Source: a virus
Taxonomy: Duplodnaviria > Heunggongvirae > Uroviricota > Caudoviricetes
IMG/VR virus record: IMGVR_UViG_2740892442_000016
Reading direction: 5' to 3' (one strand)
Length of the DNA stretch: 9,984 bases
Shown here: positions 5,124-9,303 of the stretch, in pieces
Layout of the letters: each line of letters begins with the position of its first letter
Numbering within the stretch: position 1 is the stretch's first letter
Notes under the pieces: model-generated
What the model saw: only the letters and a program-made list of their open reading frames with translations
What the model was told of the DNA's origin: nothing
Databases searched by the model: none
Translations under genes and position numbers: made by a program

Positions 5124-6306
5124 CAGGCACCTCCCAGCACCGCAAATGCGGGACCAAAGAATTCATCAGTAAACGACTGGTAAAGCTCCATGTCTTCCAG
5201 CGGGGGAACTGGCGTATATTTGTAGCGAATACGCACACGTCCCTGACGTAAACCCGTGGTGCTGTTATCCACCACGTCATACCAGCACTCCGCGCCAATC
5301 AGTTTCCCGGCAGTAACCAGTGAATCCAGTTTTGCCCTGATGGCACTGATAACATCCTTCACGTTCGCAGGCGTCAGTGGACTGTCGATGGTTTCAAACT
5401 GCGCTTCCGCAATTGAATCAGCCAGCACCTGTGCGGTTCGGGTATACACCTCAAAGATGTAGGCGTTCGTTTCCGGTGTGCGGTTGCCCCAGAAGCGGAA
5501 CCCGTTACGACGAATAATGGTCGTGATTTCTTTGTTGTTAAGGCTGTTGGCATCGCTGTCTTCGGCCTGCAACGACCAGAACACATGCCGGGACATCCCC
5601 AGCACATTTTTAACCGGAACGTTGGACAGTGATTTGTGCCAGCCCTGCTCATGGTCAATGTACGCACGAAGGCCGCACGCATAAGCAGGCGCGGGGAACG
5701 TTTCGTTTTTGCCACTTTTCGGGTTGTAGGCGATGAAGTCCGGCCATAAGAGCATCACCTCACGTTCGTTGAATTTCTGGCGGTAGGTAATTGCCTCTGC
5801 CATCGTGTTACAGCCATGACATGAGGCATACACAAACGCGCGCAGTTTACCCGCAATCACGCACAGGGATTTTGTCACCGCCTCCGTGTCCAGCTCCGGC
5901 GCGGCCAGAATACGCGGACGGTATCCGATGCTTTCATCCTGCTCTGCAACAAGCAGCGCATACATCCCCGTATAGCTGCCGTCAGATTCAGAACCACCGA
6001 TAACCAGTTGATCCTGCGTCTTTCCGTTTTCTTCTTTGTGTTCAGCCACGCGAACGACGATCACCTTTGTGCTCACCTGGTCTGCGATGGCCTTAAGCGC
6101 ACGATAAAGCGTCCCCGTTGTCCCGCATTTTCCCAGCACGTCATTGACGCGGGTCAGCAGTGTGGCTTGTTCAGCGGGAACAGCTTCGCGTCCGCATCAT
6201 CCGCCGTTGCCACGATACCGATAACGCTGGAATCAACATCGTTAATCGCTGTTACCAGGTCGGTACTTTCCGTAACACGGGCACCATGAAAACGAGTTTC
6301 ACTCAT
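5123..6306 (-). CDS. FI: Tail sheath protein (P2 gpFI-like), interrupted by an apparent 1-nt frameshift near 6157-6165; possible pseudogene or sequencing error
   Basis: ATG at 6306 gives MSETRFHGARVTE...DADAKLFPLNKPHC then TGA at 6156-6154. The rest of the sheath (LLTRVNDVLGKCGTTGTLYRALKAIADQ... to the stop at 5123) continues in another frame that opens after 6196. Combined length of about 393 codons matches a full sheath. Confidence 0.8.
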
Positions 6307-6463
6307 AGCTTCAGCCCCTTGTATCCGTTAAATGATTCGGCAACAATCATCACCCACCACGCGCGTAATCTCACCCCTGCGCCGTTCTCCCGCCACGGCG
6401 ACAACAAAAAGCAGTAACCCCCTCCGCACGCACATGCGACCATGCCGCACAGGGAGGGAGCAG

Positions 6464-7573
6464 ATGACCGACACCACCATGCAATTGCTCAGTCAGGGCA
6501 CAGACACCGTGAAAATGCCGGATTTTGATATTCTCGCGGAGGGTAAAACGCTGTCAGGCGTGGCAGAGCGCCTGATGAGCCTGTCACTGACCGACAACCG
6601 GGGATTTGAGGCGGACCAGCTCACCATCACGCTGGATGATGCGGATGGTCAGTTGCAGCTACCGCCACGGGGCGCGCGCCTGACGGTTCTCATTGGCTGG
6701 AAGGGAGAACCGCTGACAGAAAAAGGCACTTACATTGTTGATGAAATCGCTCACGAAGGACCGCCGGACAGGCTGACTGTTTCAGCCAGAAGCGCAGATT
6801 TTCGGGATGAATTTAACGTTAAACGTGAGGTGTCCTGGCATGATGTGACCGTTGAGCGTGTGGTATCCGCCATCGCTCATCGGTATGGTCTGAAACCGCA
6901 AATCAGCGAAATGCTGATGGATATCGAAATCGACCACGCCGACCAGACCGAAGAAAGCGACATGTCCTTCCTTACGCGCATGGCGGAAATGCTGGGCGCA
7001 ATCACCACGGTAAAAAGCGGCAATCTGTTATTCATCATGCCAGGTGGTGGCGTGAACGCACAGGGCCAGCCGTTGCCCTCGTTCGCCATTACACGCAGCA
7101 GCGGCGATCGCCATCAGTTCCGCATTGCTGACCGCGAGGCGTATACGGGGGTACGCGCCTACTGGCTTGATCTTAATTACGGGAAAAAGAAAAAAGTCAG
7201 CGTGAAACGCCGTAAACCGCCAAAACCCAAAAAGGAGAAAAGCAGCAGCCGTGAAGGTGATTATATGGAAGGCGCGGAAGGCAATGTGTTTGTGTTACGC
7301 AAGACTTATCAGAACGAGCAGGCAGCAAGACGCGCAGCGGCGGCAAAGTGGCAGCAGCTACAACGCGGAGCCGCATCATTCTCCATCACGCTGGCATGTG
7401 GTCGTGCAGAACTCTACCCCGAAATGCATGGCACGGTAACAGGATTTAAAAGCGAGATTGATAATCAGGACTGGATTATTGCAAAAGCCGAGCACACCAT
7501 CGATAACAGCGGCTTTACCACGCAGCTTGAGCTTGAGGCAAAAATCTCGGAATGGATAGCAGAAACAGAGTGA
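6464..7573 (+). CDS. D: Phage tail protein D (P2 gpD / late control D family)
   Basis: ORF with AGGGAGGGAG RBS at 6451-6460 and ATG at 6464. Motifs SLTDNRGFEADQL, SARSADFRDEF, ESDMSFLTRMAE and YTGVRAYW fit the gpD family as recalled. The open frame runs upstream to 6332 but has no RBS there. Confidence 0.85.
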   Translation: MTDTTMQLLSQGTDTVKMPDFDILAEGKTLSGVAERLMSLSLTDNRGFEADQLTITLDDADGQLQLPPRGARLTVLIGWKGEPLTEKGTYIVDEIAHEGPPDRLTVSARSADFRDEFNVKREVSWHDVTVERVVSAIAHRYGLKPQISEMLMDIEIDHADQTEESDMSFLTRMAEMLGAITTVKSGNLLFIMPGGGVNAQGQPLPSFAITRSSGDRHQFRIADREAYTGVRAYWLDLNYGKKKKVSVKRRKPPKPKKEKSSSREGDYMEGAEGNVFVLRKTYQNEQAARRAAAAKWQQLQRGAASFSITLACGRAELYPEMHGTVTGFKSEIDNQDWIIAKAEHTIDNSGFTTQLELEAKISEWIAETE

Positions 7574-7615: not shown

Positions 7616-7876
7616 ATGTTCCGTTGTCCGCTTTGTGGCGCATCTGCCCGTATCCGCACCAGTCGTCCTGAAAATGATTCAAACACCGTGCGGCAAAAGT
7701 ATTACCAGTGTAACAACCTGGAATGCGGCGTATGCTTCTCAACACTGGAAGCTTTCCATAAATTCACATCAAAACACGCCTCCGGCGTTCACTCTTCAGA
7801 AGGTATCCCGTGGCATGAGCTGCCAGCTTCACACAGGGGAAACAATCAGATGAGTTTGCCTTTACCTCAGAATTAA
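7616..7876 (+). CDS. ogr: Ogr-type zinc-finger late transcription activator
   Basis: Starts MFRCPLCGASARIRTSR...YYQCNNLEC, giving the C-X2-C-X23-C-X4-C finger; AAGGGAGG RBS 5 nt upstream. At 86 aa it has a C-terminal extension relative to P2 Ogr (about 72 aa). Confidence 0.85.
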   Translation: MFRCPLCGASARIRTSRPENDSNTVRQKYYQCNNLECGVCFSTLEAFHKFTSKHASGVHSSEGIPWHELPASHRGNNQMSLPLPQN

Positions 7877-7885
7877 CAGGCAGAA

Positions 7886-7914
7886 TTGCCGGAGTAACAA
7901 AAAAGCGATAGATT
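7886..7914 (+). promoter_or_regulatory. Candidate sigma70 promoter for the toxin mRNA (TTGCCG, 17-bp spacer, TAGATT)
   Basis: Seen in sequence just after the ogr stop. It would place the transcript start near 7921, giving a leader of about 147 nt before the toxin ATG. Confidence 0.3.
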
Positions 7915-8067
7915 ACGCGCGGGTGCCTTTCGGCTGATGGTCGGAGGGAATACCCGAAGGCCAGATGTGGAAAGGCCCCGGAAAACATTTCTGTTTAACC
8001 GAGGCCCTAACATATCTACCTTAAGCAAGTGATAGGTTAGCGCCTCTCCAACAAAGGAGCAAGCGCT

Positions 8068-8208
8068 ATGTCGCAAAAATCGCTTACGGCCATCACGTTC
8101 TGCGTGACGGTAATCCTCATCATCTGGATGCTACACGGTTCGCTGTGTGAAATACGGATGAGCTTCTGGGGAGCGGAGTTTGCGGCGTTCTTACAGTGTA
8201 AGCAGTAA
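8068..8208 (+). CDS. Hok/Gef/PndA-family type I toxin (46 aa, single transmembrane helix)
   Basis: MSQKSLTAITFCVTVILIIWMLHGSLCEIRMSFWGAEFAAFLQCKQ: hydrophobic N-terminal helix followed by the SLCEIR and E-x-AAF-L-x-C-K motifs I recall from Hok and PndA; AAAGGAG RBS 8 nt upstream. Below the 60-aa cutoff of the ORF track. Confidence 0.65.
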   Translation: MSQKSLTAITFCVTVILIIWMLHGSLCEIRMSFWGAEFAAFLQCKQ

Positions 8209-8217
8209 GGAAACCGC

Positions 8218-8239
8218 GACGGGGGAGCAATCCCCCGTC
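8218..8239 (+). other. Stable stem-loop (9-bp GC-rich stem, GCAA tetraloop) directly after the toxin stop codon
   Basis: GACGGGGGA-GCAA-TCCCCCGTC seen in sequence; no U-tract follows, so it is more likely an mRNA structural element than a terminator. Confidence 0.4.
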
Positions 8240-8296
8240 AATCGGTTGCTAAGGTTGGCTGAAGTGGCACCCTATCTCACAGACATGAACAACAAA

Positions 8297-8328
8297 CCCG
8301 CAGCGTAAGAACTGCGGGTTTTCTTTTT
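8297..8328 (+). terminator. Rho-independent terminator (CCCGCAG stem, 8-nt loop, TTTTCTTTTT tail)
   Basis: Seen in sequence; would end the toxin transcript at a total length of roughly 400 nt. Confidence 0.6.
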
Positions 8329-8336
8329 GGAACTAT

Positions 8337-8364
8337 CACTAGCTAGTGTACCGTTAACGGCACA
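8337..8364. promoter_or_regulatory. Two overlapping palindromes: CACTAGCTAGTG (perfect 12-mer) and TGTaCCGTTAACGGcACA (matches the TGT-N12-ACA dyad)
   Basis: Seen in sequence. TGT-N12-ACA is the dyad I recall for Ogr/Delta-type late activators; no clear -10 element is placed correctly on either side, so function is unassigned. Confidence 0.3.
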
Positions 8365-8396
8365 TAATGCTCGCACAACAAACCTGTTAAAAGAGA

Positions 8397-8678
8397 TTAC
8401 TCAGCATTCTCCTGCTTCCATTGCCGGATCATTTCATCGGTAACATCACCCTCATAACATACCACGTCATACCCTCCATTACGGCTATATGCACTGCGTC
8501 CACCACATCTACTACCATTCCTTGCATGATTATAAGGACACGCACAATTGCCTGGATAAGATTCAATGGATTCTTTAATTATTTCTTTTTTGATCTGAGC
8601 ATCAGACTTTCCTGTTGCTGCATATCCGCTAAAAGATACTAAACAAAGGCAGATTGCCATTAATAAACCACATCGCAT
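8397..8678 (-). CDS. Hypothetical small secreted Cys-containing protein in an AT-rich cargo segment
   Basis: The ORF is open to 8792, but the likely start is the Met at 8678 that begins a signal-peptide-like stretch (MRCGLLMAICLCLVSFSGYAA, A-A before TGK). The mature part is about 70 aa with four Cys (GNCACPYNHARNGSRCGGRSAYSRNGGYDVVCYEG). Weak RBS; local AT content is clearly higher than in the flanking phage genes. Family not recognised. Confidence 0.45.
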   Translation of the reverse strand: MRCGLLMAICLCLVSFSGYAATGKSDAQIKKEIIKESIESYPGNCACPYNHARNGSRCGGRSAYSRNGGYDVVCYEGDVTDEMIRQWKQENAE

Positions 8679-8910
8679 ACCGATACACTCTATTACTAAC
8701 CAATCATAGTCCACATCATAAAATCGAGATGAGGAGTACAATACCTTTAACAAGAAGGTGTCATAACGATAATATGTCGTGCAATTCATCAAAAAAAAGA
8801 TCTATATCAAAGAGATAGAACTCTTATCAGTGCTTCAGACATCGGCATTCGAGGCAGCAGAAAAACAGTAAATTTGACGAATTTGCCTTTTCCCAAGATG
8901 TTGTCAGATT

Positions 8911-9064
8911 AAAAAGATAGATTAGCGCAGGTACCTGTTGGTGGATTGCAGGAGGAAAAATGAAGTCGAGTGGAAAAATCCCAGAAAAATTTTTGTTTAA
9001 CAGAGGTCCTGGTTCACTATGCGAAATACGGAGGAGCTGCAGAAGAATTCTGCTTCATCCTTAG
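8911..9064 (+). pseudogene. Internally deleted paralog of the toxin locus (promoter -10, leader and toxin C-terminal segment retained; toxin transmembrane region missing)
   Basis: 8911-8935 resembles 7900-7927 (AAAAAG..ATAGATTA..GCGCAGGTACC), 8970-9010 resembles 7967-8008, and 9011-9042 resembles 8137-8170; the 128 bp between the last two in the intact copy (8009-8136) are absent. The remaining ORF (ATG 8960, stop 9062-9064) reads MKSSGKIPEKFLFNRGPGSLCEIRRSCRRILLHP. Confidence 0.45.
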
Positions 9065-9140
9065 AGTTTAAACAGCACGTGCACTACCATTGTTTCTGCA
9101 TATCGCCACACCATCGCCACTCAACCGCCATTGCACAAAA

Positions 9141-9173
9141 TACAAATACAAAAAAACCACCCGAAGGTGGTTT
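9141..9173 (-). terminator. Rho-independent terminator of the glyW-cysT-leuZ tRNA operon
   Basis: Plus-strand ACCACC-CGAA-GGTGGT hairpin (9156-9171); on the minus strand it is followed by TTTTTGTATTTG, about 45 nt past the leuZ 3' end. Confidence 0.6.
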
Positions 9174-9216
9174 CACGACACTGCTTATTGCTTTGATTTT
9201 ATTCTTATCTTTCCCA

Positions 9217-9303
9217 TGGTACCCGGAGCGGGACTTGAACCCGCACAGCGCGAACGCCGAGGGATTTTAAATCCCTTGTGTCTACCGATTCCACCATCCG
9301 GGC
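9217..9303 (-). tRNA. leuZ: tRNA-Leu (anticodon UAA), 87 nt, CCA encoded
   Basis: Reverse complement reads GCCCGGATGGTGGAATCGGTAGACACAAGGGATTTAAAATCCC...GGGTACCA: cloverleaf with long variable arm, matching E. coli leuZ as recalled. Confidence 0.92.

Follow-up and report, generated by a model that had tools for sequence, protein, structure and literature searches.

The stretch of DNA analysed here (the window: 9,984 nucleotides, Caudoviricetes, IMG/VR record IMGVR_UViG_2740892442_000016) carries a hok-type toxin locus and, about 1 kb downstream, a stretch at 8911–9064 that the original prediction described as a second, internally deleted copy of the first. Does this second copy still make a protein or an RNA that acts on the intact locus, or is it what is left of a dead module? 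We find that 8843–9080 is very probably a non-functional relic (pseudogene) of a second ogr-hok/Sok module situated by the attP/attR arm.

The window covers the right end of a P88-like (P2-type, Peduoviridae) prophage in the tRNA-Leu gene leuZ: gpD is followed by ogr, the integrase lies at the opposite end of the prophage, and direct att repeats are found at the tRNA gene. From left to right it reads gpD, ogr, hok, a small minus-strand ORF, the relic, the minus-strand genes for tRNA-Leu, tRNA-Cys and tRNA-Gly, and then pgsA. E. coli strain 1439 is 100% identical to this stretch, and its record continues to the left with a complete P2-type prophage (capsid, terminase, tail and replication genes, integrase). 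The features that define the setting are as follows.

6332–7573, plus strand: gpD (late control D / tail protein), an ORF annotated as late control D / VgrG-Pvc8 family in identical or related records
7616–7876, plus strand: ogr, the late-gene activator with a zinc finger (Pfam Ogr_Delta, 52.4 bits against a cutoff of 26.3; RefSeq WP_000488107.1)
9081–9145, no strand: presumed attP arm beside the att core, phage DNA with no homology to the hok 3′ UTR
9146–9271, no strand: attR core, a 126-bp exact repeat of the attL beside the prophage integrase in strain 1439, spanning the leuZ terminator and the 3′ part of tRNA-Leu
9217–9303, minus strand: tRNA-Leu (UAA), leuZ, the integration target (ARAGORN; Rfam tRNA)

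The second position of the att repeat in the strain 1439 record (L003) is 5147–5272 on the reverse complement, and in prophage-free genomes the match to the window begins only at 9148. Hence, all DNA to the left of 9146 is phage DNA. Both hok copies and the ORF between them lie within the prophage, between ogr and attR, and neither is a chromosomal toxin locus. As the att core covers the 3′ part of tRNA-Leu together with the leuZ terminator, the tRNA gene is rebuilt by the phage on integration.

Several observations on this end of the prophage stand on their own. An exact repeat of 126 bp is unusually long for an att core. In strain 1439, a second tyrosine integrase followed by siphovirus-type genes lies just past attL (L003 38115–39131) and abuts the same att core, which suggests two tandem prophages at leuZ; the window query was placed three times in that genome. 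A literature search for a published name of the leuZ prophage gave nothing usable. The mechanically called gpD ORF is 413 aa long and has an odd basic N-terminal extension, the RefSeq versions being 267 aa plus a small upstream pseudogene in strain 1439 and 369 aa in O145:H28; translation probably starts at the methionine of MTDTTMQLL.

The upstream copy provides the standard against which the relic can be read. Its parts, several of them placed by prediction, are the following.

7886–7914, plus strand: putative hok promoter read from the sequence (TTGCCG at 7886–7891, 17 nt, TAGATT at 7909–7914), with a start near G7921
7921–8324, plus strand: full-length hok mRNA, with a predicted fold of −178.1 kcal/mol (z = −7.9) in which the 5′ end is paired to the 3′ region
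7962–8027 (ends approximate), minus strand: predicted Sok antisense RNA, a free single-stranded 5′ tail and a long hairpin (−27 kcal/mol, z = −4.05)
8034–8062, minus strand: putative Sok promoter (TTGCTC at 8062–8057, 17 nt, TAACCT at 8039–8034), within the stretch that is absent from the relic
8068–8208, plus strand: intact hok toxin CDS, 46 aa (Pfam HOK_GEF PF01848, 30.1 bits against a cutoff of 22; phrog_251, E = 2.5e-23; RefSeq WP_000078920.1, Hok/Gef family)

The toxin is thus a member of the Hok/Gef family, and it also matches the NCBIfam HokA and Hok models below their cutoffs. The Rfam model of the sok/hok leader (RF01794) begins at 7921 and matches over its full length with 47.9 bits (E = 4.8e-9), below its gathering score of 59. 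In the predicted mRNA fold, tac (7921–7935) pairs with fbi (8257–8272), and a terminator scan places the terminator hairpin at 8294–8321, so that a tac–fbi closed mRNA and a Sok-like antisense hairpin are both present among the predicted folds at the z-scores given above. A strict sigma-70 scan of 7800–9220 returned no hok or Sok promoter in either copy. Its criteria were too strict to inform, the hok promoter of the intact copy having been missed because it matches the consensus at only 8 of 12 positions, and the promoters were therefore placed by homology.

For Sok, the position follows from homology to sokW, using probe YO-592 and the −10 mutagenesis primers of PMC8621323. Takada et al. silenced sokW by mutating its −10 sequence 'GGTTAGCC' (primers YO-421/422, probe YO-597; PMC8621323), and this −10 region aligns with 8035–8042 of the window. 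The position of the sokW −10 relative to the hok SD in hokW-sokW, from the Stx2 prophage Sp5, accordingly matches that in the intact copy; unlike the arrangement here, hokW-sokW is carried by a lambdoid phage in one functional copy only and encodes a toxin of 51 aa (PMC8621323). The R1 hok/sok locus (parB) resembles the intact copy in its tac/fbi closure, its Sok hairpin with a 5′ tail and its Sok promoter over the hok SD (PMC9841398, together with the general layout of that locus). The mok-like leader ORF of the intact copy (7937–8032) ends 36 nt upstream of the hok start, whereas R1 mok overlaps hok, and the position of the canonical R1 mok ATG reads ACA. The intact ogr-hok module is 95–98.6% identical to phages P88, Chuche, 500465-2 and P884B11, with 98.6% over ogr-hok in P88, and the homology of these phages to the window ends at 8328–8330. 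Taken together, the predicted elements suggest that the upstream copy (7886–8324) may be a working type I toxin–antitoxin system, and our best explanation proposes it as such.

The second copy repeats a large part of this unit.

8843–8912, plus strand: probable relic of the ogr 3′ end, reading ...NLTNLPFPKMLSD followed by a stop at 8910–8912 (z = 3.7, a 21/28 block; moderate support)
8913–9010, plus strand: relic of the hok −10 box (TAGATT at 8918–8923) and the hok/mok leader, in which the Sok-hairpin region is degraded (z = 19.1)
9011–9080, plus strand: relic of hok codons 24–46 (GSLCEIR...), frameshifted after EIR (z = 12.2), with the junction at 9010/9011

Overall, 8843–9080 is a diverged (~75–86% identical), colinear partial copy of 7823–8210. 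MAFFT and a repeat finder agree on direct-repeat blocks pairing 7902–7915 with 8911–8924, 7967–8008 with 8970–9010, 8137–8164 with 9011–9038 (24/28 identical) and 7844–7871 with 8871–8898 (21/28). When local alignments were compared with 2000 shuffles, no shuffle scored as high as the hok leader block (7900–8008 against 8911–9010, z = 19.1) or the hok C-terminal block (8137–8210 against 9011–9080, z = 12.2). The ogr 3′ end (7823–7880 against 8843–8908) was equalled by 5 of 2000 shuffles (z = 3.7), which is moderate support only, and homology further into ogr (7616–7899 tested) was not significant (z = 1.6); the duplicated unit thus probably starts in the ogr 3′ end. On the other side, the hok 3′ UTR with fbi and the terminator (8209–8345) has no similarity to 9070–9147 (z = −0.9). 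Against phage genomes, the best blastn matches of the relic are the hok loci of P88-like phages, at 72.5% over ~100 nt (E = 1e-3).

The relic is therefore homologous by descent to a hok locus, and the original prediction of a colinear, same-orientation repeat stands. So does the picture of two toxin-locus copies in the same orientation, one intact and one decayed, flanking the AT-rich ORF (38.6% GC). The extent of 8911–9064 first given to the second copy is real, but too short, as the relic reaches from ~8843 to 9080.

What separates the copies is, above all, a gap. The 128 bp at 8009–8136 are absent from the second copy, which passes directly from the leader to the toxin C-terminus at 9010/9011. 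The loss of the toxin transmembrane helix had been recognised from the outset, but it is not the helix alone that is missing: in the intact copy, these 128 bp hold the mok 3′ end, the Sok 5′ tail region, the putative Sok promoter, the hok SD, the start codon and codons 1–23, which encode the helix. In R1, the Sok promoter overlaps the hok SD region. With the Sok promoter placed by homology, the same deletion that takes the hok SD, start and helix also takes that promoter; the relic is thus unable to make Hok, and would yield no Sok from a promoter of its own.

The remaining elements have fared no better. No Hok/Gef CDS with an N-terminal transmembrane helix is present, as codons 1–23, the SD and the start are absent and the C-terminus is frameshifted after EIR by a 5-nt deletion and a 1-nt insertion. 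A Sok gene with its own promoter, 5′ tail and hairpin is likewise missing, the counterpart of 8009–8062 lying within the deletion if the promoter is where homology puts it, and the antisense strand of the relic no longer folds (−6.9 kcal/mol, z = +0.9). Neither a tac–fbi mRNA nor a terminator can be recognised, given the lack of 3′ UTR homology (z = −0.9), and the sense RNA folds no better than shuffles (z = +0.3). The −10 box TAGATT is retained, and the −35 position reads AAGATG. Decayed hok loci may leave behind an orphan Sok antisense RNA of the sokX type, which retains the Sok promoter without the hok CDS; here, with the same placement by homology, the region of the Sok promoter is precisely the deleted part. 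Judged from its sequence, the relic fails every defining functional feature of a hok/Sok locus that was tested and passes on descent only, from which we infer that it is not expressed.

In a search of 5426 complete E. coli genomes, 666 (~12%) matched the relic, 615 of them over at least 80% of its length. The deletion junction is identical in six of six aligned alleles, and among the matches listed with full cover each is 286–288 nt long and in one piece, consistent with the same deletion; the statement on the junction rests on these six alleles and on match lengths. The alleles form two main groups, ~86% identical to each other. Since the junction is the same in all six and the lengths are uniform, the deletion appears to be older than the split between them. 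Between alleles, relic segments are 81–89% identical, whereas gpD, ogr, the intact hok locus and the cargo are 93–97% identical and the att core and tRNA genes ~100%. The relic is thus the fastest-diverging segment between prophage alleles, which indicates relaxed constraint. It is unannotated in RefSeq, and a literature search found no paper describing it.

Whether related genomes carry one copy or two has a mixed answer: both occur together in 322 genomes, and O157:H7 has the relic only. In O157:H7 ATCC 43888 (L001 4488–5895), gpD is cut short by IS30, which stands in place of ogr and the intact hok. Because of this replacement, only the cargo ORF and the relic are kept, and the prophage is defective. 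No relic turned up in P2-like phages that use other att sites (Chuche, P88, the ihfA-site prophage) or within the alternative cargo of PSS-08-2; its absence from Chuche and from the ihfA-site prophage indicates that it travels with the leuZ att/int module.

Between the two copies lies a slot whose content changes from prophage to prophage.

8331–8807, no strand: variable cargo module, beginning where P88 and Chuche homology ends (8328–8330) and holding one gene here
8397–8678, minus strand: cargo CDS, 93 aa, a small secreted Cys-rich protein (phrog_27544, E = 7e-58, function unknown)

The cargo protein has a signal-peptide-like N-terminus and several cysteines. PHROG 27544 is its sole match, as searches against Pfam, NCBIfam and PADLOC gave nothing meaningful and tblastn against phage genomes gave no match. 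The original prediction had asked whether this ORF is always found between the copies, and it is not: the PSS-08-2 slot (L005 2614–3844) carries two other genes on the plus strand, for a zinc-ribbon protein and a 'T6SS-associated TagO'. In that prophage, homology to the hok 3′ end stops at window position 8282, earlier than in P88 and Chuche, and resumes at 8808; thus the slot varies and the relic stays. In phage Chuche, com and a methyltransferase lie between hok and int and there is no relic, and the ihfA-site prophage has neither cargo nor relic. An 8-mer at 8331, AACTATCA, equals the first eight bases of the attL arm and was considered as an old att junction. Other alleles read AACTCTCA at this position, so the match is probably due to chance. 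Elsewhere in the same prophage type, E. coli H3 (L004 956–2871) carries genes for a TIR-domain protein and a SIR2-family protein as an insertion between gpD and ogr, a pair that looks like anti-phage defence cargo in a second variable slot.

Could a relic without toxin and antitoxin nevertheless act on the intact locus? The original prediction suggested that it might still express a leader or antisense-target RNA and interfere. In its most explicit form, the retained −10 box would drive a leader-like RNA that serves as a decoy, a sponge or another modulator of the Sok of the intact copy and thereby tunes Hok. Two observations speak for it. The island 8898–8929 (33 columns comprising the ogr′ stop, an A-tract, the −10 box TAGATT and the first leader bases) is the most conserved part of the relic, with 2 variable columns among 14 distinct alleles, whereas 21–29% of columns vary elsewhere in the relic; the nominal P of ~0.005 applies to an interval that was chosen after viewing the data. 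Some constraint is therefore possible, such as a live promoter or a binding site. In addition, the predicted Sok of the intact copy would form a duplex of −54.6 kcal/mol with the sense strand of the relic, compared with −33 ± 4 kcal/mol for shuffles and −129.5 kcal/mol for the true target.

However, in R1 it is the Sok 5′ tail that starts Sok–hok pairing, and the target stretch that would match this single-stranded tail (8009–8027) is deleted from the relic. The −35 position reads AAGATG and the relic RNA has no excess structure. The leader proper has 29% variable columns and is 84–85% identical between alleles, below any functional neighbour. The relic is also kept in O157:H7, although IS30 has removed the intact copy there. 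Sok RNAs are, moreover, specific even between intact loci, as those from intact chromosomal loci fail to cross-regulate hok of R1 (PMC9841398). With the tail target gone, no excess structure and the fastest divergence in the region, interference with the intact locus is unlikely; the −10 island and the residual complementarity are what it has left. We hold it still more doubtful that the island drives a short RNA which titrates or mis-pairs Sok and so sets the Hok threshold at induction, and/or that the ogr-hok repeats act as homology handles for cargo swaps.

The location of the relic invites another explanation, namely that the region has been kept as a functional attP arm, with Int arm-type, IHF or Cox sites, or for site-specific recombination. 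The relic lies 66–300 bp from the att core and is found only with the leuZ att/int module, and two copies of the motif (T)ATCGCCAC(T) lie in the arm on the attR side (9101–9109 and 9113–9121) and one in the arm beside int at attL, which makes these motifs candidate Int arm-type binding sites. But the repeated motifs fall in 9081–9145, outside the hok-homologous part, and the hok-derived 8930–9080 is the most variable segment. In several genomes, the relic is also interrupted or truncated by IS1 or IS3 in it or near it, although those prophages may be defective. We consider an attP role for the relic itself very unlikely.

That the second copy encodes a small protein is more improbable again. 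The deletion was said to fuse the upstream ORF in frame to the C-terminal motif of the toxin, and the window does contain such an ORF.

8960–9064, plus strand: fused 34-aa ORF from the ORF list, MKSSGKIPEKFLFNRGPGSLCEIRRSCRRILLHP; fortuitous, no conserved gene

It is present as described, with GGAGG 5 nt upstream of its ATG and 34 open codons, and could be imagined to yield, for example, a truncated, non-toxic Hok-derived peptide. It is not conserved across alleles, however: the O157:H7 alleles have ATA in place of ATG, and the frame closes early in two others, at an in-frame TAA after 8 codons in H3 and at a stop after 13 codons in 2022S01-140. A Pfam search with the ORF gave no match, and it lacks the transmembrane helix. 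The allele in the window has this ORF by accident, and a coding function can be given hardly any credence.

Chance or low-complexity matching, which might be suspected because single blocks are short (14–28 nt) and the region is AT-rich, is practically negligible as an explanation, as colinear blocks with z = 19 and z = 12 were reached by 0 of 2000 shuffles and blastn independently matched the relic to the hok loci of other phages.

How, then, might a dead ogr-hok/Sok module have come to lie beside the att core? According to the preferred reading of 8843–9080 as a relic, an ancestral phage would have had two units, each consisting of an ogr 3′ end and hok/Sok. The present order (ogr, hok, cargo, ogr 3′ end, hok relic, attP) agrees with either of two origins: partial tandem duplication, with cargo inserted afterwards, or illegitimate recombination between two related phages. 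In the case of recombination, one phage would have supplied its late region together with ogr, hok and cargo, and a leuZ-specific phage the 3′ half of ogr to which these were joined; a new ogr-hok-cargo block would thereby have come to lie upstream of the ogr-hok-attP-int block already in place. Recombination appears slightly favoured over duplication because the intact module is matched almost exactly in phages with other att sites, from all of which the relic is ~25% diverged. We infer that a single 128-bp deletion would then have disabled the att-proximal copy; as it removed the Sok promoter and 5′ end along with the hok RBS, start and helix, toxin and antitoxin would have been lost in one step. 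Later drift would have cost the relic its −35, the frame of its C-terminus, fbi and the terminator, and its RNA structure, while the slot between the copies would have come to hold different cargo in different prophages.

The two-copy ancestor is reconstructed from these sequences, and searches for an undeleted sibling of the relic returned none: nothing closer than 72.5% in the phage collection; 13 loci in IMG/VR with the pattern AAGATAGATTAGCGCAG, all of the same deleted E. coli type; no matches in two pattern scans of one genome per species; and, in complete E. coli genomes, matches that were all of the deleted-form length among those listed with full cover. Partial relic matches (strain EC590) had been considered as recombination products of both copies and proved to be IS1 truncations.

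The relic is a further example of the decayed hok loci that are well known in E. coli. In the hok loci of K-12, the hok CDS can still be recognised and the damage is due to IS elements, point mutations or rearrangements; in the relic, by comparison, one internal 128-bp deletion took the toxin N-terminus and the Sok promoter together, and the relic sits inside a prophage beside a paralogue that is called working. According to bioRxiv 10.1101/2025.08.07.668861, which cites Pedersen and Gerdes 1999, hokA, hokB, hokC and hokE of K-12 are inactivated chromosomal hok/sok loci. Like the relic, they are hok-family loci that decayed in place, are judged inactive and are among several hok copies per genome. 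The closest relatives of the module are in P88-like phages (Xuanwuvirus: P88, Chuche, 500465-2, P884B11), of which the intact copy is the ogr-hok/Sok right-end module. In the relic, the parts follow one another as they do there (ogr 3′ end, hok leader, hok C-terminus), but identity is only ~72–79%, the 128 bp and the 3′ UTR are missing, and those phages, which have other att sites, do not carry a relic. Compared with R1, the relic has no regulatory elements besides the leader homology.

The finding is real and ordinary, and it carries little weight for biology at large. hokW-sokW hints at a possible role for the intact copy, in aiding lysis or release, and not at one for the relic. For annotation, the relic accounts for an unannotated 240-bp stretch in ~12% of complete E. 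coli genomes, and in O157:H7 it is the only hok-like sequence remaining at this prophage end. It also delimits a variable cargo slot in P2-like prophages that integrate into leuZ. Seen as a mosaic scar, the relic would be a record of duplication or recombination at the ogr-hok-attP junction, and it illustrates what may be a safe death route for a type I toxin–antitoxin locus, in which a single deletion removes the antitoxin promoter and the toxin translation start together.
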